Below, piece by piece: positions 1-36,881 of a stretch of 64,000 nucleotides of DNA. The notes beneath the pieces are model-generated. The model ran no database searches. It saw nothing but the letters and a program-made list of their open reading frames with translations, and was not told the origin of the DNA. The stretch covers positions 2,806 to 66,805 of the forward strand of contig JAZSQJ010000038.1 in NCBI GenBank assembly GCA_045537905.1, written 5' to 3'. Position 1 is the stretch's first letter. Every line of letters starts with the position of its first letter. Both the position numbers and the translations under genes were made by a program. This DNA comes from Eubacteriales bacterium. Its GTDB lineage: Bacteria > Bacillota > Clostridia > Oscillospirales > CAG-382.

Positions 1-399
1 TCATTGGGACTGATGTCGTTATTAAAATACAACGGAAAAGAATATGACGGAAAAACACTAATGCTTGGAAGTTTAACTATATCCGGAGAGTTTTTTTGCG
101 GGGCAGAGTATTTCTCGGGGGAGTATGCTTTTAAGGTTAGTTATCGAACAGTAGCTCCGGGGATTATTTTGTACGATTTTGATATTGTAGAGTATGAAAA
201 ACCGTTGACTCAAAGAGAACCGGTCGAGGAAGCTGTGAAAAATCCGACAGCAAACTATAGTTTTAATTTTAATCTAACACCCGATATAGGTACGAATATA
301 TTTGGTGTAGTAGTTGTTTTGGCAACGAGCGCAATTGCGTTGATATTCGGTACTGCGTCCGCTGCGGCTGCTGCCGCTGGTTTTGCAATGGCGGCTTAA
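1..399 (+). CDS. Partial CDS (5' end outside window); hypothetical protein with hydrophobic Ala/Gly-rich C-terminal helix
   Basis: Frame is open from base 1 (track ORF 4..399, TAA 397..399). The C-terminus NIFGVVVVLATSAIALIFGTASAAAAAAGFAMAA looks like a membrane anchor. No family recognised. It lies just upstream of the RHS cassettes. Confidence 0.45.
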   Translation, partial: SLGLMSLLKYNGKEYDGKTLMLGSLTISGEFFCGAEYFSGEYAFKVSYRTVAPGIILYDFDIVEYEKPLTQREPVEEAVKNPTANYSFNFNLTPDIGTNIFGVVVVLATSAIALIFGTASAAAAAAGFAMAA

Positions 400-416: not shown

Positions 417-1130
417 ATGGCAATAAAACATTATTTGAAACCGACTGAGGAATTTGTAAAAGAAAATTTTTACGATCGTTTAATACAGAAAGGCTTTGTT
501 CCTTTTAAGAAAAGCTGTTTGCAGTGGGCAAAATTTGTCCACGACGACGTGTTGGCACTTATATGCTTTAATGTTGAAACCCTGGGGGATTTTGACCTTT
601 TTTATGGTGCTACAACAACTGTACAAAACTTGCCCTTTGGTTTAACTCCTCATAATACTTATGTGCGCTATACTAATGAAATGCTTTGGGCGAACAAAGA
701 ACTGCCCAAATACAAAGCACCTTTGTCCCAGCCTCGTACATACGGGATAAAGCTGCAAAGTATAAGTGAACAGCTTGAAAAAATTGTTTTTCCTGCCTTT
801 GATAAAGAAATTACACCAAAAGATGTAGTCTCTTTATCCAGATACATTCCCTATATCTCTTGCTATGAGTATTTGTACGGAGATTTTGAAAAGTTTGAAA
901 ACAAAATTAAAGAAATAGCAAATGACGAAGACAGAAAAAGACGCATTTTGGAAGAGTATAGAAATCTTGAGTTTATAGAACGCCGTTGCCCTTGGAGTGA
1001 AATGGTAATTTACAATAGTGTTTTGGCTTATATAAATCAAGATTACAGTATTTTGGAAAAGCATATCCAGCGTTGCAAGGAATTTAACCTTAAACTGCTT
1101 AAGAAAAACATACCAATGCTGTTCGAATAA
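417..1130 (+). CDS. Hypothetical cytoplasmic protein (possible immunity-type gene; guess from position only)
   Basis: 237-aa ORF with GGAGGA RBS at 405..410, 6 nt before the ATG. No signal peptide, TM segment or known motif seen. The cassette-boundary repeat follows directly. Confidence 0.55.
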   Translation: MAIKHYLKPTEEFVKENFYDRLIQKGFVPFKKSCLQWAKFVHDDVLALICFNVETLGDFDLFYGATTTVQNLPFGLTPHNTYVRYTNEMLWANKELPKYKAPLSQPRTYGIKLQSISEQLEKIVFPAFDKEITPKDVVSLSRYIPYISCYEYLYGDFEKFENKIKEIANDEDRKRRILEEYRNLEFIERRCPWSEMVIYNSVLAYINQDYSILEKHIQRCKEFNLKLLKKNIPMLFE

Positions 1131-1291
1131 TTAGCATAAGCATAACCAAACAATAACAGGAGGACGGGATTTGCGTCCCGTCCCTTGGGGGACAAGCTGT
1201 TGTGATGCCCTTGTGGCGACTTGCTTACAAGCTATAACGGCACGGCTATTACCTACGATGCAATAGGCACCCCCCTCAAGTGGCGTAACGC
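1129..1291 (+). repeat. RHS cassette-boundary repeat, copy 1 (non-coding unit with hairpin plus conserved 5' end of cassette)
   Basis: AATTAGCAT...GGACGGGAtttgcgTCCCGTCC (hairpin 1162..1183)...GGACAAGCTGTTGTGATgCCCTTG.GGCGA.TTGCTTACAAGCTATAACGGCAC recurs at 3680..3827 with few mismatches. Confidence 0.85.
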
Positions 1292-2483
1292 CACGGCGAT
1301 AGAGTGGCAAGGCAGGAATTTGACCCTGTTTTCAAATTCCAACGGTGAGATATATAATTACACCTATAATGCCGACGGCATACGTACGCAGAAGAACGTT
1401 TTTAATGCAAACGGTGATTTTACCGGCTCTACCGAGTATATCTACGACGGCACTAAGCTGATAGCGGAAAGCAGAAGCGGTGACTGGCTATACTACTTCT
1501 ACGACGCAAACGGTGCAGTCACGGGTATGTCCTATAACGGCACTCTGTACTACTATCGCAAAAACCTACAGGGCGATATAACAGGCATCTACAACGCCTA
1601 CGGCACCTTGGTCGTAGAGTACGAATACACCCCTTACGGTGCTATACTTAGCACCACAGGCTCTATGGCAAGCACCATCGGTTCTGTAAACCCCTTCCGT
1701 TACAGAGGCTACTACTACGACTCCGAAACAGGCTTCTACTATCTCATAACAAGATACTACGACCCCGTTGTTGGTAGGTTCCTTAACGCTGATGCTCTTG
1801 TCTCCACCGGTCAAGGTGTTCTCGGCAACAATATGTTTGCTTATTGTTTGAATAATCCAATTAACGGAGCAGATGCTTTTGGGTTATGCTCTACGGCTTC
1901 CGGTATAAAGTCTTGTTTGCAAGGCGGATGCGACTGTTCTCATAACCATTGTACTGCTGAATATATTATTATGAAACATTTCGTTGAGCCAAATACTCAG
2001 TGGATTGAAATACAGGATTATATTCGTGAGCATAATAGAACTATGTTGTCGTCTGTGGTGTTTGAATTGAGATTTGATGCAATTATGTTTTTAGCTAAAT
2101 CATACGATGCAGGACACACTTTATTTGTAACATGGGGATCAAGGGATGAAGACCCTGACTTCACCTACGGTCCGCACATATATGGATGGGCTTTCGATTT
2201 CCAGTTTTGGGATGAAATGTATTATGATGATATAACTTCCGGAGATTTTAATGCCGAATATTTTCATAATAATGTTATTTATCAGACATATAACGTAGAT
2301 GATCCTCGTTGGGACATCGTCGGTCCTATAGGCGAAAGCTGCGGTCTTGTGTGGGGGAGAACATTGTGTCAGATAGGTGCCTTTTTAATTGATGATGATC
2401 CCTGTCATTTTCAAATTAGTGGTTTTTGGATATTAAGAGAGCAACTATACGGAATTGGAAATTGGCGAAATATTAAGGTGTAA
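1221..2483 (+). CDS. Orphan RHS-core + C-terminal toxin cassette 1 (toxin domain resembles LAS/M15 D-Ala-D-Ala-type zinc peptidases)
   Basis: RHS/YD core sequence (YNADGIRTQK, YYYRKNLQGDITGIY, PFRYRGYYYDSETGFYYLITRYYDPVVGRFLNAD) ends in the core-terminal motif NNPINGADAFGL (to nt 1886). The C-terminal domain has PHIYGWAFD (H 2175..2177, D 2196..2198) and DPCHF (H 2406..2408). The ORF opens right after a stop at 1203..1205. TTG is merely the first possible start, there is no RBS and no N-terminal RHS shell, so the cassette is probably silent. Confidence 0.8.
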   Translation: MLTSYNGTAITYDAIGTPLKWRNATAIEWQGRNLTLFSNSNGEIYNYTYNADGIRTQKNVFNANGDFTGSTEYIYDGTKLIAESRSGDWLYYFYDANGAVTGMSYNGTLYYYRKNLQGDITGIYNAYGTLVVEYEYTPYGAILSTTGSMASTIGSVNPFRYRGYYYDSETGFYYLITRYYDPVVGRFLNADALVSTGQGVLGNNMFAYCLNNPINGADAFGLCSTASGIKSCLQGGCDCSHNHCTAEYIIMKHFVEPNTQWIEIQDYIREHNRTMLSSVVFELRFDAIMFLAKSYDAGHTLFVTWGSRDEDPDFTYGPHIYGWAFDFQFWDEMYYDDITSGDFNAEYFHNNVIYQTYNVDDPRWDIVGPIGESCGLVWGRTLCQIGAFLIDDDPCHFQISGFWILREQLYGIGNWRNIKV

Positions 2484-2501
2484 ATAAAGGAGACGTGTGG
2501 T

Positions 2502-3668
2502 ATGAAAAGATGCATAGGACTATTATTACTACTGGCAATTATCGTTTCTTTAGGCTCTTGTACCGCTGAAACCGACAATGTCGGTTCGTCAGAACAAAGC
2601 CTTCACTCCTCTTACGTTTCAGCCGAAAACGAAAAGATAGGCAAGTTCGGTGGCGAGTATACCTTTGATTATCACTATGCCCAAACGCCTGACAACTTCT
2701 TTTACGTAAAGGCATCTATCGGCGGCGATAAAGACGACGGAGTGGTACGCGTTTCAAAGTCTGACTTTGCCGACAAAGCCATGATAGTATCAAAGGCGGC
2801 TTTTGGAGTGGCAGAGGGTGACCGTTTGTATGCCGACGTTGTAGGCGTTACCTCGAAATGGCTGTACGTGGCTGTATCAAACGCTTCGGGCTCAGATGAT
2901 GTATATGGACTTTCCCACGACGGCAGCACAAAAGAAAAGCTGCTTGAAAACGTAAAGTCTGTGTATTTCCACATGGGAAGCGGGAGTCTTTATTTTACGC
3001 AAAACGATGAGGACGGCATAGGGCATCTGTATTCTTTAGACCTTATAACCGATGTGACAACGGAAGTTGATACGGGTGAATATACTGTTAGCGGTCTTCG
3101 TTGGTGTAGGCTAAAGGGCGATAGAATAGGATTCCTTAATTATCCCAACAGCATTATTGTTGATGCCGACGGCAAGATAGACGTGATGCAGACAATACCC
3201 TCCGATGAAATGGCGGAAAAATGCTCCGGCAGAGACGAATCACTTAAAGAAAAGGTAGAGGGCTTTGTAGAGGATGGGCGTGAGCTTGTGAGTTATGCCG
3301 AGTGTGGCGATTATATCTATTACATAGATAAAGGCACAGATGGCAAGACTACTGTGCTTAACCGCATAGACGCGGACGGAACGGATAAAGCCGTGCTCAA
3401 AGAAAACACCGAGGTTATTGAGTTGTATTCTTATGAAGGTGTGCTGTACGGAGATATTACCGATGGCGATGTTGCTTACTTGGTTAAGGTAAGTAATAGC
3501 GGCGAGGTTACACATACCGAAGCTGTCACAGGCGTTGGACAATGGGGCAATATCAAGATAGAAGATGGATTGTTTATCAGGACGTATGAAGTAGTTCCTC
3601 ACAACCCTTCTCTCGTTTACGTTTATAATCCACAAACAGGACAGGTAGTTATGAGGAGTATTAGCTAA
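2502..3668 (+). CDS. Lipoprotein with beta-propeller-like repeats (DUF5050-like, tentative); putative extracytoplasmic immunity protein for cassette 1
   Basis: Signal peptide with lipobox (MKRCIGLLLLLAIIVSLGS|C) and AAGGAG RBS upstream. Has recurring motifs of the type LYSLDLITD and YIYYIDKGTDGKTTVLNRIDADGTDKAVL. Lies immediately downstream of the toxin cassette. Confidence 0.75.
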   Translation: MKRCIGLLLLLAIIVSLGSCTAETDNVGSSEQSLHSSYVSAENEKIGKFGGEYTFDYHYAQTPDNFFYVKASIGGDKDDGVVRVSKSDFADKAMIVSKAAFGVAEGDRLYADVVGVTSKWLYVAVSNASGSDDVYGLSHDGSTKEKLLENVKSVYFHMGSGSLYFTQNDEDGIGHLYSLDLITDVTTEVDTGEYTVSGLRWCRLKGDRIGFLNYPNSIIVDADGKIDVMQTIPSDEMAEKCSGRDESLKEKVEGFVEDGRELVSYAECGDYIYYIDKGTDGKTTVLNRIDADGTDKAVLKENTEVIELYSYEGVLYGDITDGDVAYLVKVSNSGEVTHTEAVTGVGQWGNIKIEDGLFIRTYEVVPHNPSLVYVYNPQTGQVVMRSIS

Positions 3669-3679
3669 AAAGGCTTTAT

Positions 3680-3827
3680 AATTAGCATCACAACAGGGGA
3701 CGGGATTTGCGTCCCGTCCTCTAGTGGACAAGCTGTTGTGATACCCTTGGGGCGATTTGCTTACAAGCTATAACGGCACTGCTATTACCTATGATGCAAT
3801 AGGTAATCCTCTAAAGTGGCGTAATGC
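3680..3827 (+). repeat. RHS cassette-boundary repeat, copy 2
   Basis: Same unit as 1129..1291, including the identical hairpin GGACGGGAtttgcgTCCCGTCC at 3698..3719 and the conserved cassette 5' end. Confidence 0.85.
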
Positions 3828-4914
3828 TCAGATGATAGAGTGGTACGGCAGGCAAATGACCCTGTTTGCAAATACCAACGGCTATATTACGTCCTACGTT
3901 TACAACTCTGACGGTATACGTACGCAAAAGCTACACTACGATGAAACCGCAGAGCATGTAGGTACTACCAAGTATACCCTTGACGGTAACAAGATAGTAG
4001 CGGAAAACCGCCTTGGAACGAACATATATTATACCTATGACGACAAAGGCGCCATAATGGGTATGGTATACGGCGGCTACAGCTACGTGTTCTCCAAAAA
4101 CCTACAGGGTGACGTTATAGGCATCTATAACGAAAACAGACAGCTTGTCGCAAAGTATGAATACAGCGCTTTCGGTGAGATAACTGCTATTACCGATGCA
4201 AATGGTAATGATGTTTCTGCTAACGCATCACATATCGCCAATGTTAATCCTTTTAGATATCGTGGCTACTACTACGATACCGATACAGGCTTCTACTATC
4301 TGCAATCCCGCTATTATGACCCTGTTGTTGGTAGGTTCCTTAACGCTGATGCGTATGTTTCCACGGGACAAGGCATTCTCGGCAACAATATGTTTGCTTA
4401 TTGTTTGAACAATCCAGTCAATATGATTGACATTGACGGTCAAGATCCTATTCCACAGTGGGCAATCAGAATAATTCAAGGAGATGGAACGGAAGAGGAT
4501 TATAAAAAGGCTTTGTCTGTTAACGCAGATGCTTGGGAAGGTGGCGCAAGAATATCGGTAGATAGGGCGATCGAAATTGCATACAGCAAGTATAATCAAA
4601 TGCGACAAGATTATATGGCTAATACTCCAAAATGCTACCATGGACTTTTTCCGACCGTTGAAGAAACGGTAGCGAGATGCCGTGTTGAACGAGCTTTTGA
4701 GTACTGGCGTACTAAATTGAAAGAATCAGACTTTAGTGTGTTAACAACTGCAAAGGCGGCTGTTAGCATAGGCACGGGGATGTACAACATAGGAAAAGGT
4801 ACAGGTTTGCTTTTAACTCCGGAGCCAACGATGGTTACCAAGGCAAAAGGAATATATTATATTGTTTCTGGAGTTATACGAATGGTGAAAGGAATAGCTC
4901 AAGCAATTGAATAG
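3757..4914 (+). CDS. Orphan RHS-core + C-terminal toxin cassette 2 (toxin domain of unknown family with Gly-rich hydrophobic tail)
   Basis: The N-terminus LTSYNGTAITYDAIGNPLKWRNA is near-identical to cassette 1. Same RHS core (PFRYRGYYYDTDTGFYYLQSRYYDPVVGRFLNAD), ending NNPVNMIDIDGQ (to nt 4443). The 157-aa C-terminal domain is unrelated to cassette 1 and ends AAVSIGTGMYNIGKGTGLLLTPEP..GIYYIVSGVIRMVKGIAQAIE. No RBS before the TTG. Confidence 0.8.
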   Translation: MLTSYNGTAITYDAIGNPLKWRNAQMIEWYGRQMTLFANTNGYITSYVYNSDGIRTQKLHYDETAEHVGTTKYTLDGNKIVAENRLGTNIYYTYDDKGAIMGMVYGGYSYVFSKNLQGDVIGIYNENRQLVAKYEYSAFGEITAITDANGNDVSANASHIANVNPFRYRGYYYDTDTGFYYLQSRYYDPVVGRFLNADAYVSTGQGILGNNMFAYCLNNPVNMIDIDGQDPIPQWAIRIIQGDGTEEDYKKALSVNADAWEGGARISVDRAIEIAYSKYNQMRQDYMANTPKCYHGLFPTVEETVARCRVERAFEYWRTKLKESDFSVLTTAKAAVSIGTGMYNIGKGTGLLLTPEPTMVTKAKGIYYIVSGVIRMVKGIAQAIE

Positions 4915-4926
4915 AGGTGAAATCAT

Positions 4927-5088
4927 ATGAAAAAATCAGACATTATCCATTCCATTCTATTGGTACTTTCCATAGTTCTTTCTGCAATAACGATAGCGAA
5001 TAATGGTGCAGACGTTTGGGATTGGATTATTATAGTAGATTCAGGCGTTATCTTATCATTCTTGCTTTATAAACTAATGAAGCGGTGA
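4927..5088 (+). CDS. Small 2-TM membrane protein, 53 aa (not in ORF track); putative immunity protein for cassette 2
   Basis: ATG at 4927, 12 nt after the toxin stop, preceded by AGAGGTGA. Translation: MKKSDIIHSILLVLSIVLSAITIANNGADVWDWIIIVDSGVILSFLLYKLMKR. It has two hydrophobic helices, and TGA is at 5086..5088. Confidence 0.6.
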   Translation: MKKSDIIHSILLVLSIVLSAITIANNGADVWDWIIIVDSGVILSFLLYKLMKR

Positions 5089-5092
5089 TGTT

Positions 5093-5157
5093 AATTAGTC
5101 CCAAACGAACACAGGGGACGGTTCTCTGGAACACAGGGGACGGTTCTCTGTGTTCCC
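5093..5157 (+). repeat. Third, cassette-less boundary element with perfect 22-nt tandem duplication and hairpin
   Basis: Starts AATTAG..ACAGGGGACGG like the other boundary units. GAACACAGGGGACGGTTCTCTG occurs twice in tandem (5107..5128, 5129..5150). The stem GGAACACAG/CTGTGTTCC closes at 5156. Confidence 0.8.
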
Positions 5158-5211
5158 TATATTAAAAGAGCATCAAGGCTTGTCACCCTTGGGTGTAAAG
5201 GTAACTTCTTC

Positions 5212-5241
5212 TTGACAATTTTCGGGGGGGGGTGATATAAT
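5212..5241 (+). promoter_or_regulatory. Sigma-A-type promoter with G9 homopolymer in the spacer
   Basis: TTGACA (5212..5217), 18-nt spacer containing GGGGGGGGG (5224..5232), then TGaTATAAT (5233..5241). Lies 82 nt upstream of the ATG at 5324. Confidence 0.6.
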
Positions 5242-5323: not shown

Positions 5324-5788
5324 ATGTATAGAGCAGAAGAAGGCAGAACAGACCTGAGAAGAAAAGAGCTGTTAAGCGCTATAATTATGCTTATATCTAC
5401 TGCTGTTTTGTCGCTTTTTATCTGGGCGACGGTATCCAGATACGGAGTGAGCGTGCCTTATGTGGGCGTGTACGTTTTGTGGTTTGCCCTTAGCGTTTAT
5501 TTTACAAAAGCCTACCTGTTTTTAACGCCTCGCAAACGCTTTGGCACCGTGACTGATATAAAGGATTTCAAGGAAACTTATATTAGGAGCCACGGCGGAG
5601 CTAACGGCTTGGAAACGTATAGCGGGATGGGCGTTGTTGAATGTACCCTTGCTATCGCTTTTGATAACGGTAAGGAGGGAGACTTTGTTTTCGTTCACAA
5701 GGGCGACCTTAAAACACTTAAGGTTGGTGACCGTGTTGGAATCTTCCGTTTTCTTAGAATGCCTGTATGGGAAACCAACCCAAATTAA
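5324..5788 (+). CDS. Hypothetical membrane protein (2 TM N-terminal, small soluble C-domain)
   Basis: 154-aa ORF with AGGAAAGGGG RBS. TM segments LLSAIIMLISTAVLSLFIWATV and VGVYVLWFALSVYFTKAYLFL. No family recognised. Confidence 0.6.
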   Translation: MYRAEEGRTDLRRKELLSAIIMLISTAVLSLFIWATVSRYGVSVPYVGVYVLWFALSVYFTKAYLFLTPRKRFGTVTDIKDFKETYIRSHGGANGLETYSGMGVVECTLAIAFDNGKEGDFVFVHKGDLKTLKVGDRVGIFRFLRMPVWETNPN

Positions 5789-6173: not shown

Positions 6174-6728
6174 GTGGTTTTGAAAGACAATCCCAAGCCA
6201 AGCTTTATTTTAACCAATGACCAAAGGGAGTTTATAGAGAATTTGTTGACAAAAAACGAATCAGCTATAAAACATATGATTCGGAAAACTCTTGGAGATA
6301 AGCACGGGCATTTGATTGAGGAGTGTATTAGTGAGCTGTGTTTGCTTATGTGCGAAAAAATATCTGTACTTGAGGCTCATCCCAATCCGGCGGCTTGGGT
6401 TATAGTTTCTGCAAAGCTAACGGCGTTTACGGTGATAAATAACAATAAAAAGGGCGCTAACTCCTTTCCGTTAGAGCAAGCCAAGATAATCGGGCCCGAT
6501 GCAACCTTTGAAGAGGCTTTGTATAGCATTTGGCTACAAAATGGCACTCCGCAAAAGCTTTTAGATACGCTGACCAAGCGTGAAAAGCAAATATATCAGA
6601 GTTTATATATAGAAAAGAAAACTGCAGAAGCCACAGCAAGGGAGCTTGGTTTAACTCCCAGCACGGTCAGAAACGTTAAGAAAACCATAAAAGATAAGAT
6701 TTTAGATCAAATAAAGAAAAATATTTGA
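6174..6728 (+). CDS. Sigma-70 family RNA polymerase sigma factor (small, ECF-like, regions 2 and 4)
   Basis: C-terminal region-4 HTH: TKREKQIYQSLYIEKKTAEATARELGLTPSTVRNVKKTIKDKI. Region-2-like segment HPNPAAWVIVSAKLTAFTVI. GGAGGTG RBS; start is GTG 6174 or TTG 6180. Confidence 0.8.
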   Translation: MVLKDNPKPSFILTNDQREFIENLLTKNESAIKHMIRKTLGDKHGHLIEECISELCLLMCEKISVLEAHPNPAAWVIVSAKLTAFTVINNNKKGANSFPLEQAKIIGPDATFEEALYSIWLQNGTPQKLLDTLTKREKQIYQSLYIEKKTAEATARELGLTPSTVRNVKKTIKDKILDQIKKNI

Positions 6729-6746
6729 AAAAATAAAAAAATTTTC

Positions 6747-6776
6747 TAGACGTTTTCCGTGTTTTGTACATATTAA
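6747..6776 (+). promoter_or_regulatory. Promoter-like motif, copy 1 (TAGACGTTT-N12-ACA..T)
   Basis: TAGACGTTTTCCGTGTTTTGTACATATTAA lies between the sigma stop and the anti-sigma-like ATG. By my count it matches 8497..8526 at 23 of 30 positions. Confidence 0.4.
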
Positions 6777-6794
6777 TAAGTGAGGAGGGATTTA

Positions 6795-7625
6795 ATGGAT
6801 AAAAAAGAACTTGAAAACCTTACGCTTGGTGAGATAAGAGCTATGCTTGCCGCCGGCGACCTTGCTTTGCAAGACTTAGACACGGCTACCCTGGAAAAGC
6901 TTGTGGACAGTGAGACTGATATGCTTTGTTTGGGAGAGGGCGACGTTGATTTTATAAGCGAATGCGCGGAGATACTCAGTGAGAGACAAACGGACATAAT
7001 GTCTCACGAGGACTTTATGGCGATTGTTAACAAGACCTTGGAGAAACACACCGTACCTGCACGCAAGCGTTTTGGTATGAAGCGTGCCCTTATAATAGCG
7101 GCGGCTGTTGCTACGCTTATAATCGGCGGCACCGTGGTTGCCTCTGCCCTTGGGTTTAATTTGTTTGATTATATCGGCAAAATGGCTATGTCTTCCGATG
7201 GAACCAAGTATAACGAGGGCGATTACACCTTCTTCAATCAGGGCGAAGCCAGAGAATACGCAACGATAAAAGAAGCAGTAGAAAAAGAAAGCTTAAATAT
7301 TATGTATCCCGCATCCTTCCCTGAGGGTATTACGTTTGACAGCGTGAAAGTAACCAACAGTTACAGAGGCGGTAAGTGGATATTTATAGGCTCTGATAAA
7401 GACGAAGTAAATATATTAATTGAGACGGAGCTTTTGCCTACCGAGGGTGCCTTTGAGACCGAAGACCTTTATATGCACGGTGGCGTTGGATATGTTATGC
7501 ATAAACCTACAGCCTATGAATACGGAGCCTACACCAACGTTGATAACTGTGGATATACTATACAGGCAAATGAATACGAGGACTTGATTTATATAATTGA
7601 AAATATGGAGGAGTATAAACAATGA
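6795..7625 (+). CDS. Anti-sigma-factor-like single-pass membrane protein (DUF4367-type extracellular domain, tentative)
   Basis: ATG 6795 follows GAGGAGGG RBS; the track start GTG 6780 contains that RBS. Has a cytoplasmic N-domain, one TM (ALIIAAAVATLIIGGTVVASALGF) and an extracytoplasmic C-domain. Lies directly downstream of the sigma gene. Confidence 0.65.
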   Translation: MDKKELENLTLGEIRAMLAAGDLALQDLDTATLEKLVDSETDMLCLGEGDVDFISECAEILSERQTDIMSHEDFMAIVNKTLEKHTVPARKRFGMKRALIIAAAVATLIIGGTVVASALGFNLFDYIGKMAMSSDGTKYNEGDYTFFNQGEAREYATIKEAVEKESLNIMYPASFPEGITFDSVKVTNSYRGGKWIFIGSDKDEVNILIETELLPTEGAFETEDLYMHGGVGYVMHKPTAYEYGAYTNVDNCGYTIQANEYEDLIYIIENMEEYKQ

Positions 7626-8026
7626 AGAGAATAGTTAACGTTTTATTATGTGTGATTTTACTTATGACGGCAGGCTTTGCCGTTTCTGCCACAGGTGATA
7701 ACGGCGTTTATAATTATGAGATAAACGGTGAAGAATACACGGTTAGCTTTGAGGATGAAAGCCTTTCTGCCGATACCAAGCAAATTATTGCAGAAAGCCT
7801 TGTGGGACTTAGAGACGGTTCCGCACAGACCTACGGCTTGGGCTGCACCCTTTTCGGCCACGACTATATTACAAAGCAGGTTTCGGTTATTCATCATAAG
7901 GTAAGAACTATTGTGCCCAGATGCGATTTGAAACTATACAATGTTACTATTTGCGAGGACTGCGATTATATCAAGTCACAAACTCTTTATTCTACTAATT
8001 CGATTGACTGCTGCCCCAAGGACTAA
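7622..8026 (+). CDS. Secreted Cys-rich hypothetical protein
   Basis: ATGA overlap with the upstream gene. Signal peptide MKRIVNVLLCVILLMTAGFAVSA. Eight Cys in the mature part. Confidence 0.6.
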   Translation: MKRIVNVLLCVILLMTAGFAVSATGDNGVYNYEINGEEYTVSFEDESLSADTKQIIAESLVGLRDGSAQTYGLGCTLFGHDYITKQVSVIHHKVRTIVPRCDLKLYNVTICEDCDYIKSQTLYSTNSIDCCPKD

Positions 8027-8051
8027 TTGAAATACATAATGCGAGGATACT

Positions 8052-8432
8052 ATGAAGCTTAAGACTGCTTTTTTACTGCTTCTTGTTGCCGCCCTTTGCT
8101 TTACCGCCTGCGGCGGTGAGGCAAAACGCCCTACCGATTACCCAAACACCACCTGGAGATGCGATGATGGCAACATCACCTTTTCCGTCAGTGCCGACGG
8201 CAAGGTAGAAAACGCCTCTCTCGTGGGCGCAAAAGGCGATGCAGTAAAGCTAAGCGTAGTTTTTTCCGACGTTGCGGAGAAAACAGCTTCCTTTTACAGC
8301 GAGGACGGAAAAGAGCTTTACTTTTCCGGAAGCTGTGTGTTTGAAAAGGATTCTTTTACCCTTACGGTAAAGGATATCTATAACAACAGCTTTTCTCACC
8401 TGCCGCCTATGCTCATTTTTTCAAGCAAATAA
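8052..8432 (+). CDS. Hypothetical lipoprotein
   Basis: Signal peptide with lipobox (LLLLVAALCFTA|C); 126 aa. Confidence 0.6.
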   Translation: MKLKTAFLLLLVAALCFTACGGEAKRPTDYPNTTWRCDDGNITFSVSADGKVENASLVGAKGDAVKLSVVFSDVAEKTASFYSEDGKELYFSGSCVFEKDSFTLTVKDIYNNSFSHLPPMLIFSSK

Positions 8433-8758: not shown

Positions 8759-10957
8759 ATGTATATCAAGAACAAACTTTTTAGCAAGACATTTGCTCTA
8801 TTGCTTTGTATCGTTTTTGCTTTTTCCTGTACAACATCACACAGCATTAACGCAAGCAGTACAGATTTGGAGCAAGACTGGCGTAGCAAAATTGATGAGG
8901 AGCTTTGGGCAGTAATGCAAACAAAAGCTGACGACGATTTAATTTCTGTGTACCTTTGGCTTGATGACGGTGCAACTTGGGAAAAGTTCGAAAAAATCAT
9001 GTGCGAAGAAAAGAATATGGATCCTGCAGTATATGAGGACAGAGACAGATTTAATGCCGAAATTGTACCAAGTTTAGCTATGTCTTTCCAAAACGACGAA
9101 ATAAAAGATATTACAAAATCGGGAATCGACATTAACAAAAGTCTTGAGGACAAAATATATAATGTTAACAACAAATACCGAGAAACAAAATTAAAAGTTC
9201 TTAAGCAAGTTTTTACCCAATCAAATGAAGAATTTTTAGACTTATATGTTGATACTATTAACAGAAAAGTAGAATATAAAGGTAAAGTAACTGCTACACT
9301 TGTAGTGGATGCGACAAAAAAAGAAATTGTTGAATATGCGAAACTTAAAGAGGTTAACGACATTTCATTTAATGCACCTGCGGAATTAGTAGAGGCGGAA
9401 GATCCTGCTTTGTATCAAATTCACGCAGACACAGTAACAGGCACAAAAAGCTCTCGTTATAACGACGGAACAGGTTACAAGGGGCAAAATGTAAAAATAG
9501 GTATAATCGAACCAGGGGTTTACGATGCAACCCATCCGCAATTGCTCAATCTTCCTGAAGAAAGGTTACGCATTTTGGATAACGCAGGTGACAACGGAGC
9601 TCCGTTAAACAAAGGAGTAAGCCTCCATGCAACAAAAGTGACAAGCTTAATCGTTGGACAACCTATTACTATAGGCGGAAAAACATATGAGGGAATAGTT
9701 CCTATGGCATCTGTGATTTTAACGCCCATATCCAGCTCCAAGACCTTGTACAATGCAATACTTTCATTAACAGAAGAAGGGTGTTCGGTGATAAACATTA
9801 GCGCAGGTTATCGTGTAGAGAGTGATGCAGCAAAATATTCGTACATAGACCGAGAAGTTGACAGAATTCTAGCTTCCAACGATGTAGTGGTTGTCAATGC
9901 GGCAGGTAATATCCGCAATTATCCAGATTCAAACGAATTAGATCCTAATACGATAAATTTAATAAGTCCCAGCAAGGCGTTGAATGTTATATGTGTCGGC
10001 AACGCTTATACTAAAAATTCTGCTACAAGCACCTTGCCTTCACCGTATAAAATGCTAAGCGGGTCAAGTTATATTGAAGCCGACTATGTTCCGAACAAAC
10101 CCGACATTTCTGCTCCCGGTTGTAATATTTCCTATGTAACTTCAAGCCTTACTATCAGCCCAAGTCACGGGACGAGCCTATCCGCACCGAACGTTACCGG
10201 CGTTGTGGCACAAATGTTTGAGGCTAATCCAGATATAACTCCCCAAGAAGCAAAAAATATACTGTTAGCCAGTGCGGATTACAGCAAAATCAATCCCGAC
10301 AGAGACGATACTGAACACTACTATTGTGTTGATGATGTGAACATTGGTAGTTACCTAAGAGAAGTAAGCGGTGCGGGCTTAGTTAACGCAGCAAGGGCGG
10401 TAAACGCTGCGAAAAATCTAGGCTCCGGTACACAACTTTTCAATTTAACCGAAAGCAATTCCGTTGTTGAAATGACACTGGGACAATTGAATCAAGGCGA
10501 AAGAGTTCGAATTTTGATGACATTTTACAAAACTCGTGATAGTCTTATCACATCGGTAAACGATTTTGATAATGTTGACCTTTCACTTTTGAAAACTTCG
10601 TCTTATTCTGTAATAAGCTCTTCTGCCTCTCCCGTCAATAATATAGAAATTATTGAGTATACTGTACCAAGCGGAGAAACAGGAAATTATCATTACAAGC
10701 TGAATGCAAGCAGGATTGTTTCGGCAAGTATTCCTGTTTGTGTAACTTGGATCAAGTGGAGGCCGGGCGACGCAAACCTTAATGGTGTTACCAATAATTT
10801 AGATGCAGGTTTTATATTACAATATGATTCAGGCGTTGTCGAACTAACTCCCGAGCAATTTTTCATTGCCGATGTAAACAAAGACGGTAAAGTTAATAAT
10901 ATTGATTCTACATTGGTTTTGCAATACGATTCGGGTTTAGATATCACACTTCAATAA
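8759..10957 (+). CDS. Secreted subtilisin-like (S8) serine protease with N-terminal prodomain-like module and C-terminal dockerin
   Basis: Signal peptide present. Subtilase blocks: VKIGIIEPGVYDATHPQL (Asp block, but with Glu at 9509..9511), HATKVTSLIVG (His 9626..9628), NAAGN, and GTSLSAPNVTGVVAQ (Ser 10175..10177). Dockerin F-hand repeats: GDANLNGVTNNLDAGFILQYDSG and DVNKDGKVNNIDSTLVLQYDSG. Confidence 0.9.
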   Translation: MYIKNKLFSKTFALLLCIVFAFSCTTSHSINASSTDLEQDWRSKIDEELWAVMQTKADDDLISVYLWLDDGATWEKFEKIMCEEKNMDPAVYEDRDRFNAEIVPSLAMSFQNDEIKDITKSGIDINKSLEDKIYNVNNKYRETKLKVLKQVFTQSNEEFLDLYVDTINRKVEYKGKVTATLVVDATKKEIVEYAKLKEVNDISFNAPAELVEAEDPALYQIHADTVTGTKSSRYNDGTGYKGQNVKIGIIEPGVYDATHPQLLNLPEERLRILDNAGDNGAPLNKGVSLHATKVTSLIVGQPITIGGKTYEGIVPMASVILTPISSSKTLYNAILSLTEEGCSVINISAGYRVESDAAKYSYIDREVDRILASNDVVVVNAAGNIRNYPDSNELDPNTINLISPSKALNVICVGNAYTKNSATSTLPSPYKMLSGSSYIEADYVPNKPDISAPGCNISYVTSSLTISPSHGTSLSAPNVTGVVAQMFEANPDITPQEAKNILLASADYSKINPDRDDTEHYYCVDDVNIGSYLREVSGAGLVNAARAVNAAKNLGSGTQLFNLTESNSVVEMTLGQLNQGERVRILMTFYKTRDSLITSVNDFDNVDLSLLKTSSYSVISSSASPVNNIEIIEYTVPSGETGNYHYKLNASRIVSASIPVCVTWIKWRPGDANLNGVTNNLDAGFILQYDSGVVELTPEQFFIADVNKDGKVNNIDSTLVLQYDSGLDITLQ

Positions 10958-35910: not shown

Positions 35911-36881
35911 AGCTTTCAAAGGAAAAGATAAGAGAACACTACCTTAGCTTTATGAAAAATCTAAGCCCCGACGTTTTTCTTAAGCCCTTGTATTTTCAAC
36001 CCTTTCAGTGTCCCGTAGCTATGACCGATGTAATGGCTATAGAACGCCAGGTTCAGGACTTCAGCGTGTTTTCGCTGTTGATTCTCCGTTTGATAGAGGC
36101 AGGCTTCAGAAAGCCGGAGCAATTGGTTTCAATTTCGGGAATGAGCAAATCAACGGTAGAATCGTTTATTGTCAGATCCGTCGTTGACGGGCAATGTGAG
36201 TTTGTTGACAAGGACGATCACGACAAGGGCGTTGTGCTTACTGCTCTGGGCTTGGAGACCTTGGAGGAAAACGAAAAACAAACCGCAAACGTCCTGGAGC
36301 CCAAGGGTTACGTTGAGTACGAAACCCCTCGCAGGCTGCATATAGAGGCTGTTACGGGGACGGTTCTCCCCGTGTATATGGAGCGGGGAATGAAGGACGC
36401 CGAGCCTGACGAGACTTTGGGAAACCATATTCTTCCCAGAGAAAGCGTGGAACGGGACGACGAGCTTCTCCGTGAGATTAAGGCCAGAATAGGGGAGTAT
36501 GTAGATACCGACCGTATAGCTTCAGGCGACGTCGTTCAGACCGTCAAATCCATAGAGTCCATACGCATTCGTTTCCGTTGGGCGTATCTTGTCAGGTTTG
36601 AGGGAATGGTCTACCCCATGATAGTTATGACGGGTAAAAAAAGCGCAGACAAGCTTAATGCGGCAAGCAAAACCAAAGGCAAGCTTGGTTTTGTTGCCAC
36701 GCCCTTGGCTGTATCCGAAACCGATAGGGCGTTTTTAGGCAGCCTGGGCGAGGAATTCAAAAGGGTGATGGTAAGAAGCGACAAAAACTTTGAGTACCTT
36801 GAAAAAAGCATCAGCTCCTTCCGCTTCGACCCTCTGCCCGTGCTTGCCTCCGAGGGGGACGATAAGGAGGACAAAGAATGA
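35904..36881 (+). CDS. Hypothetical protein with N-terminal winged-helix-like segment
   Basis: GTG 35904 lies 9 nt after AAGGAGG and overlaps the helicase stop by 7 nt. FSLLILRLIEAGFRKPEQLVSISGMSKSTVESFIVRSVVDGQCEFV..VVLTALG looks like a wHTH. The rest is unassigned. Confidence 0.7.
   Translation: MLKLSKEKIREHYLSFMKNLSPDVFLKPLYFQPFQCPVAMTDVMAIERQVQDFSVFSLLILRLIEAGFRKPEQLVSISGMSKSTVESFIVRSVVDGQCEFVDKDDHDKGVVLTALGLETLEENEKQTANVLEPKGYVEYETPRRLHIEAVTGTVLPVYMERGMKDAEPDETLGNHILPRESVERDDELLREIKARIGEYVDTDRIASGDVVQTVKSIESIRIRFRWAYLVRFEGMVYPMIVMTGKKSADKLNAASKTKGKLGFVATPLAVSETDRAFLGSLGEEFKRVMVRSDKNFEYLEKSISSFRFDPLPVLASEGDDKEDKE

Follow-up and report, generated by a model that had tools for sequence, protein, structure and literature searches.

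The window, which is the whole 64,000-nucleotide (nt) stretch of DNA analysed here, corresponds to positions 2806-66805 of contig C77 in a metagenome-assembled genome (MAG) of 1.88 Mb (89 contigs, 96% complete). Its first 5,157 nt hold fragments of RHS genes, each followed by a different tip and a candidate immunity gene. We read them, with a probability of about 0.8, as belonging to a Sec-exported, WapA-like RHS locus in which four or more orphan rhs-CT/immunity cassettes (A to D) stand in tandem, the fragments here forming the distal part of the array. Comparisons were made with 79 related RHS loci from other Clostridia and with 13 genomes of the same genus. Unprefixed coordinates refer to the window, and the features of cassettes B, C and D, the junction units and the end-of-array element all lie on the plus strand.

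Tandem RHS core fragments with unrelated tips

Upstream of the window the contig extends for 2.8 kb and holds cassettes A and B. A profile search of the genome detected four Rhs_assc_core domains in tandem on C77 and none elsewhere. Cassette A begins with a core (C77:3-1079) that is truncated by the contig start and is followed by immA, an immunity gene of the Imm-NTF2-2 family (1.2e-14). The orphan of cassette B (C77:1909-3201) is a 431-amino-acid (aa) frame that opens with the handle YPWGDLLTSYNG, 896 nt ahead of the window; its last 132 codons, seen in the window as open reading frame (ORF) 1..399, form the tip CT-B, and 18 nt past this lies immB (417..1130, 237 aa), a candidate immunity gene by its position. 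The initial annotation of this DNA had suggested that ORF 1..399 may be the C-terminus of a full-length RHS gene and ORF 417..1130 the matching immunity gene. The former proved to be the tip of orphan B; the latter keeps its candidate role, with orphan B as the partner.

Junction unit 1 (1131..1205) runs from TAATTAG through a palindromic GGGGACGG-type hairpin (1162-1183) and a 20-nt tail to an in-frame TGA (1203-1205). It leads into cassette C, whose RHS core fragment (1206..1886) comprises a 5' handle (1206-1345), a 3' conserved block (1685-1864) and the terminal motif NNPINGADAFGL. The toxin domain CT-C (1887..2483) and the candidate immunity gene immC (2502..3668, 388 aa, with a signal peptide and a lipobox-like LGSC) follow. 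Junction unit 2 (3669..3741) likewise has TAATTAG, the hairpin at 3698-3719 with an extended stem (3695-3722), a tail and an in-frame TGA (3739-3741). Behind it, cassette D consists of a core fragment (3742..4443; handle 3742-3881, 3' block 4242-4421, terminal NNPVNMIDIDGQ), the tip CT-D (4444..4914, 156 aa, with a small-residue hydrophobic tail) and immD (4927..5088, 53 aa, two hydrophobic helices), the putative toxin and immunity roles of the last two being assigned from position. The end-of-array element (5093..5157) carries its 5' arm and loop (ACAG-GGGACGGTTCT) in tandem at 5107-5128 and 5129-5150, and a closing 3' arm at 5148-5157.

The near-identical ORF starts, common RHS core and divergent tips on which the initial annotation had built were borne out. 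ORFs 1221..2483 and 3757..4914 both open with MLTSYNGTAITYDAIG, and the C and D cores are 63% identical in protein over their first ~230 residues (E 2e-103). Both match TIGR03696 (Rhs_assc_core) above its cut-off, C at 1.3e-19 and D at 1.1e-19. Past NNPINGADAFGL and NNPVNMIDIDGQ, CT-C and CT-D show no relation (E 2.7), and the four tips of the array match different families or no family. The long identical DNA runs reported near the core end are there as well, as an exact 29-mer (gttgttggtaggttccttaacgctgatgc, at 1767 and 4324) and an exact 32-mer (ctcggcaacaatatgtttgcttattgtttgaa, at 1821 and 4378). The two cassettes are collinear in DNA, with repeats at 1162-1345 versus 3698-3881 (85% identical) and 1685-1864 versus 4242-4421 (82%).

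Equally, the frames do open after a stop codon and without a ribosome-binding site. Those of C and D start at 1206 and 3742, immediately past the junction TGA, and their first start-type codon is a TTG (1221 and 3757) that stands 15 nt behind this TGA and has no Shine-Dalgarno sequence. A promoter scan found no promoter-like site ahead of the orphans or in the tail of the junction units. All three complete orphan ORFs (B, C and D) are intact reading frames of 385-431 codons. Because a promoter, a ribosome-binding site and an export signal are absent from the fragments, the tips are probably not produced from their place in the array.

Pairwise comparison of the core fragments gave dS values of 0.9-2.5 and dN/dS values of 0.09-0.29, which suggests that they are old alleles under protein-level constraint, neither recent duplicates nor decaying debris. 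Identity is distributed unevenly along the cores. Those of A, B and D are 83-100% alike through most of the 5' and middle parts, then 74-76%, then 49-77% by the tip, the D core being 90% identical to the B core in amino acids. The C core resembles the others at 84% in its first 30 codons and at ~70-80% in its last 60, with a middle of 52-70%. Exact runs are longer than column shuffles would predict: the longest A-B run (77 nt) was reached in none of 2000 shuffles, the B-C run (34 nt) in one, the C-D run (34 nt, where shuffles averaged 18 nt) in nine and the B-D run (58 nt) in 13 of 2000. This mosaic identity, together with the over-long exact runs, would fit patch-wise gene conversion and crossovers within the core. 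The pattern is also consistent with a 3' core segment that travels together with its own tip, since a 77%-identical homologue of CT-C has the same core subtype. On this view the cassettes stem from alleles that had already diverged and not from a recent duplication, with patches homogenized by gene conversion.

Toxin tips and candidate immunity genes

CT-C is rare, with about 10 homologues among 1.8 billion representative proteins, and all seven aligned homologues of full coverage lie behind RHS cores. Residues H97, D104 and H174, which form an H-x6-D...H zinc triad, are invariant in eight CT-C homologues. Profile searches matched CT-C to L-Ala-D-Glu endopeptidases (2vo9 at 1.1e-5), with hits to 8q2g and 6akv as well. 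An AF2 model of moderate confidence (pLDDT 69) had as its top Foldseek matches exclusively LAS/M15 enzymes, namely Ply500, ChiX, LysB4 and the VanY-like LdcB. CT-C is thus predicted to have a LAS/M15C (L-Ala-D-Glu endopeptidase-like) fold and to act on the cell wall, which would suit a role of the putative lipoprotein ImmC as its immunity factor outside the cytoplasm. Two loci of the same genus (L022 and L115) have kept CT-C and immC as a pair. In a further MAG of the genus, an immunity-only cassette (L021:2876-4222) consists of a 51-codon orphan handle followed by a 77%-identical immC, the LAS-peptidase toxin having been deleted.

The remaining tips gave weaker or no matches. CT-B resembles Tox-REase-9 below the Pfam cut-off (E 8e-4), and a 2,306-aa RHS gene in another locus (L027) ends with a tip that is 34% identical to it. 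CT-A has a weak match to DUF4329, and CT-D matched no Pfam or NCBIfam family. No Pfam or NCBIfam family was matched by immB, immC or immD either.

A full-length RHS gene in a relative

The initial annotation had supposed a full-length RHS gene upstream of the window. Extension of the contig yielded the two further cassettes in its stead, the fourth core being cut by the contig start. tblastn searches of the assembly with the cores and with a congeneric 2,097-aa protein, as well as searches with RHS_repeat and YD-repeat models, returned the four orphans and no full-length RHS gene or shell. We considered a 1,707-aa ORF on contig C89 as a candidate and rejected it as a leucine-rich-repeat surface protein. 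Contig C77 starts inside the core, at sequence of which cassettes B and D hold mismatch-free copies (77 and 33 nt, respectively), a position typical of an assembly break. Since the contig breaks in the repeated core, the missing main gene does not refute the orphan model. Neither an identity search with the immA protein nor the scanning of metagenomes for CT-A led to a longer contig of the species.

Within the genus, an Rhs core is present in only five of the 13 genomes. One of these, G011, has a 2,097-aa RHS ORF with a signal peptide, RHS_repeat (1e-31) and DUF6531; the protein carries NWGDLLTNYNGTSISYDAIGNP, with ...NWGDLLTNYNGTSISYDAIGNPSKWRNA... at residue ~1667. Beyond this point come a tip and a gene of 276 aa, and then an orphan whose start coincides with the boundary used by the orphans described here. 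The last cassette of the G011 array, at the other contig end, abuts sigma/anti-sigma and secreted-protein genes equivalent to those that come after the array at 6174-8432 of the window. Because both arrays adjoin the same sigma/anti-sigma genes, the locus is syntenic with that of G011 on the downstream side. A gene about 1,400-2,500 aa long is present in some 30 of the 79 related loci, in many cases with one to five orphans behind it. From G011 we infer that a main gene also exists for the present array.

With such a gene as partner, homologous recombination between its core and an orphan core would place a different tip behind the shell that is expressed. Each cassette would contribute the last ~230 codons of the RHS shell up to the core motif, an unrelated toxin tip and a cognate immunity gene, and the immunity genes would guard the cell when neighbours use the corresponding tips. 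The initial annotation's reading of the region as orphan RHS toxin/immunity cassettes agrees with the core domains, the unrelated tips, the lack of start signals, the tandem arrangement, the family of immA and the peptidase fold of CT-C.

Several observations weigh against this account. Besides the missing full-length gene, the immunity roles in cassettes B, C and D are assigned by position alone. Outside the two ~180-nt blocks, the DNA of C and D is ~70% identical, which makes a poor substrate for RecA-type recombination. The junction units are better conserved than the cores would predict: from the hairpin to the start of the core frame (1162-1220 versus 3698-3756) they are 88% identical by a count made by eye, compared with ~44% at synonymous sites of the core (pS ~0.56). 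The likeliest source of this conservation is homogenization of a block made up of the junction and the first 30 codons, but the unit could have a function of its own. Finally, synteny upstream of the G011 main gene is interrupted in the genome studied here by a different insert beside a tRNA gene. At this site (C79:19290-19751), the tRNA gene matches at 100% its counterpart ahead of the congeneric RHS gene, but the sequence that follows is unrelated and opens with MRKQTDLDEIKRTAITLLH; it is probably an element integrated next to the tRNA.

The absence of a full-length gene or shell from the MAG, the sparse distribution of Rhs cores in the genus and the broken upstream synteny would suit a relic, in which the lineage has lost its main RHS gene and keeps the array as a bank of immunity genes against the RHS toxins of neighbours, the toxin fragments being carried along and their tips never re-armed. 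The L021 cassette, which lost its CT-C toxin yet retains the handle and immC, points the same way. We regard such an immunity islet as unlikely. The contig ends in an exact repeat of 33-77 nt within the core, as is typical of an assembly break, the orphan ORFs B, C and D are all intact, and the congeneric G011 retains its main gene at the syntenic locus.

Hairpins at the cassette junctions

All junctions share the left half ACAGGGGACGG in a junction alignment. Ahead of B, C and D it continues as the palindrome GGGGACGGGA-tttgcg-TCCCGTCC, followed by the 20-nt tail to the in-frame TGA. The same hairpin (GGACGGGAtttgcgTCCCGTCC) stands exactly at 1162 and 3698, as had been stated. A single-hairpin form, ACAG-GGGACGGTTCT-CTGT, occurs after cassette D and once upstream of B (C77:1795-1820). 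The inter-cassette unit is a palindromic doublet of a GGGGACGG-core hairpin, and the end-of-array element its single-hairpin form. The initial annotation saw in 5093..5157 a third copy of the unit start, without a cassette and with a perfect 22-nt tandem duplication. The duplication (GAACACAGGGGACGGTTCTCTG, at 5107 and 5129) is real; the hairpin is a different variant, with only ACAGGGGACGG in common, and we take the element for the 3' end of the last cassette rather than for the beginning of one that is missing. Shortly beyond, at 5176-5190, CACCCTTGGGTG resembles the tail of a junction unit plus the first bases of the handle (TACCCTTGGGGCG); this may be the relic of a further, deleted cassette or a chance match.

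In 32 instances of the hairpin, the core hardly varies and changes in the outer stem compensate each other (covariation 0.256 versus 0.125 in shuffled alignments, reached in 0/500; slid controls gave at most 0.121), with 82.7% of cells paired and 28 double changes. Unit 1 folds as DNA at -12.7 kcal/mol (z -3.6), and z-scores of the hairpins overall are about -3 to -3.6. Rfam returned no family for the hairpin units, the end-of-array element or a 125-nt multi-hairpin element upstream. Four copies of the exact 12-mer exist in the genome, three in the array and one at window position 36356, which we discarded as a chance match within a coding region. The palindromic form has three copies, all in the array, in place of a multi-copy dispersal over the genome. 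Matches to GGGACGGTTC within RHS cores were likewise not counted as copies of the element, being codons of a conserved G-R-F.

The hairpins lie 30-40 nt past the stops of the immunity genes. If the cassettes were transcribed and translated on their own from the TTG codons at 1221 and 3757, such stable structures might serve as terminators or insulators, or as mRNA-stabilizing 3' ends of the preceding immunity genes; REP elements are generally known to stabilize upstream mRNA (reviewed in PMC3733652), and dN/dS values well below 1 show protein-level constraint on the core fragments. This explanation seems to us hardly credible. A terminator was rejected, as no T-run follows the hairpin and the terminator scan flags the minus strand only. 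No promoter-like site or Shine-Dalgarno sequence precedes the TTG, and delivery would be impossible for a tip that has no shell, signal peptide or export domain. The low dN/dS values would equally result from divergence while the fragments were part of full-length genes.

Within the genus the palindromic form is confined to RHS orphan junctions. Among the 79 more distant loci, the single-hairpin form lies at cassette junctions in at least 15, a few hundred nt past the tip and often as partial tandem copies resembling 5107-5150, which occur for example in L032, L073, L093 and L054. In L030, a gene for a 249-aa HUH protein (2290-3036) sits within the RHS array between hairpin copies at 2229(+) and 3061(-). 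This protein matches NF047646, the REP-associated tyrosine transposase, at 2.1e-22 and 79.6 bits (cut-off 80). The same arrangement of inverted copies around a RAYT-like gene recurs in G004 (C106). G003 has 36 hairpin copies, dispersed as inverted pairs ~210 nt apart; none is within ~5 kb of an Rhs core, the nearest being ~9 kb away. Seven other genomes hold 48 exact 12-mer copies, of which 22 have an Rhs core within ~5 kb, in genomes whose arrays make up at most 1% of the DNA. Hairpin orientation is biased 28:6 towards the rhs strand.

By these comparisons, the junction unit and the end element are members of a family of REP/TIR-like repeats that goes with RAYT-type tyrosine (HUH) transposases. 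REP/REPIN-RAYT and TIRtron/TIRYT elements, the latter with the TIRYT tag GGGGWSAS, have been described (Di Nocera et al. 2013, PMC3733652; Bertels and Rainey 2011). The present family resembles them in its short palindrome with a conserved G-rich core (GGGGACGG), in the presence of singlets, doublets and clusters, in the inverted copies that flank a RAYT-like HUH gene in L030 and G004, and in the dispersed doublets of G003. It differs in that the genome studied here lacks a transposase and holds only six copies, three per form, all in the RHS array. No Y1 transposase (PF01797) was detected in this genome, and because such an enzyme is missing, the hairpins here have most likely been carried along passively or are relics that came with the junctions. 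We found no paper that ties such hairpins to Rhs cassette junctions, and their enrichment at these junctions is a new detail.

The initial annotation spoke of conserved recombination handles and pointed to the same non-coding unit ahead of each cassette. This unit cannot be a handle for exchange with the main gene, because the main gene of the relative G011 is without it; the unit falls into the REP/RAYT-type hairpin family. As the orphan of G011 opens at the same boundary without any hairpin, we also conclude that the hairpin is not needed to define the cassette boundary.

The hairpins could still have directed the exchange of cassettes if a RAYT/TIRYT-type HUH transposase, acting in cis or in trans, cut and joined single-stranded DNA at GGGGACGG hairpins, so that cassettes were captured, lost and shuffled in an integron-like manner rather than by core crossover. 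The recurrence of the family at junctions of distant loci, its concentration near Rhs cores, the orientation bias, the repeated partial tandem copies and the RAYT-like gene between inverted copies inside the L030 array would all be expected. So would orphan starts that vary by lineage, as observed: query residue 1 here, residue ~177 for L036 and L074, and for L073 a point another ~390 residues upstream. We nonetheless hold this scenario to be highly improbable, given that the genome has no Y1 transposase, the G003 copies are dispersed away from Rhs cores, the G011 orphan keeps the boundary without a hairpin, the mosaic breakpoints fall within the cores and enzymology for this hairpin family is nonexistent. 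A broader version, in which hairpins and HUH transposases form a single-stranded DNA analogue of integrons in gut and rumen Clostridia, with 1162-1183, 3698-3719 and 5107-5157 as footprints left after loss of the enzyme, is just as speculative. Serine recombinases were rejected as agents, since their genes are near only 6 of the 79 loci and, in the genome studied here, on a single unlinked 1.5-kb contig (C71). The 9 kb downstream of the array contain no recombinase-like ORF; tyrosine integrases were not searched for and the upstream side is unassembled.

Two further sequences stand out upstream of cassette B. A degenerate copy of the ~125-nt multi-hairpin element lies at C77:1495-1592, 1.2-1.3 kb ahead of the window. 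The element is closed by a 17-bp stem (TACCAGCAAGCATCGCC / GGCGATGCTTGCTGGTA), and intact copies occur at L030:3155-3290, L094:4790-4921(-), L051:2310-2441(-) and L059:11720-11835. Copies are 90-97% identical across genomes of different families and always stand beside RHS cassettes. The element terminates with ...GGTACATAACAG right ahead of the orphan cores in L036 and L074, and in L092 it interrupts the core. The second, C77:1721-1861, is a small ORF with a strong ribosome-binding site that opens with MRKVKLIVHETYQGKRKTEDVFAA and is fused to a REP-like hairpin. Its N-terminus resembles that of a small gene (9020-9214) in L031, which precedes a large serine recombinase (9198-10817) beside an RHS locus; the fused ORF looks like the scar of a recombinase-bearing element within the array.

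Comparison with known orphan modules

The reading of the locus as an orphan array has a precedent in Salmonella, in which orphan rhs-CT modules recombine with the main gene (PMC3967940). Like the orphan rhs-CT/rhsI modules of Enterobacteria (Salmonella Typhimurium LT2 STM0292; Koskiniemi et al. 2014, PMC3967940), the cassettes have a partial core, no initiation or export signals and an immunity gene each. The enterobacterial modules stand in tandem downstream of a main rhs gene with core homology open to recombination; here, the main gene is seen in the relative G011. The host in the present case belongs to the Clostridia, of Gram-positive type, and the main gene of its relative has a Sec signal (WapA-like), unlike Rhs proteins of the type VI secretion system/PAAR kind. 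There are at least four cassettes with one fixed 5' boundary, core identity is a mosaic of 52-93% instead of a single block of 95%, and the junctions bear REP-like hairpins. Recombination at this locus is a prediction from the sequence.

WapA/WapI of Bacillus subtilis is reportedly a Sec-exported RHS/YD-repeat toxin with its immunity protein. The congeneric full-length protein shares with WapA an N-terminal signal peptide, RHS repeats, an Rhs core, a polymorphic tip and a downstream immunity gene. We know of no WapA locus described with a multi-cassette orphan array. CT-C, for its part, has the fold and zinc triad of LAS/M15C L-alanyl-D-glutamate endopeptidases (Ply500 2vo9, ChiX 5opz, LysB4 6akv); unlike these enzymes, it is fused behind an RHS core as a predicted interbacterial toxin tip and paired with a lipoprotein.

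Orphan toxin/immunity arrays are a route by which contact-dependent weapons diversify. If read correctly, the locus would carry what is known from enterobacteria over to the Sec-exported RHS toxins of uncultured Clostridia in gut and rumen, and would supply a rare peptidoglycan-peptidase tip with a lipoprotein partner. Of potentially greater weight is that transposase-type hairpins recur precisely at the boundaries of cassettes in numerous unrelated genomes. Should the hairpins be active sites and not passengers, cassette turnover would rest on an undescribed mechanism.

Directly past the array, and ahead of a membrane-protein gene (5324-5788), the promoter scan found its only perfect promoter, TTGACA-18-TGaTATAAT at 5212-5241, with a run of nine G in the spacer.

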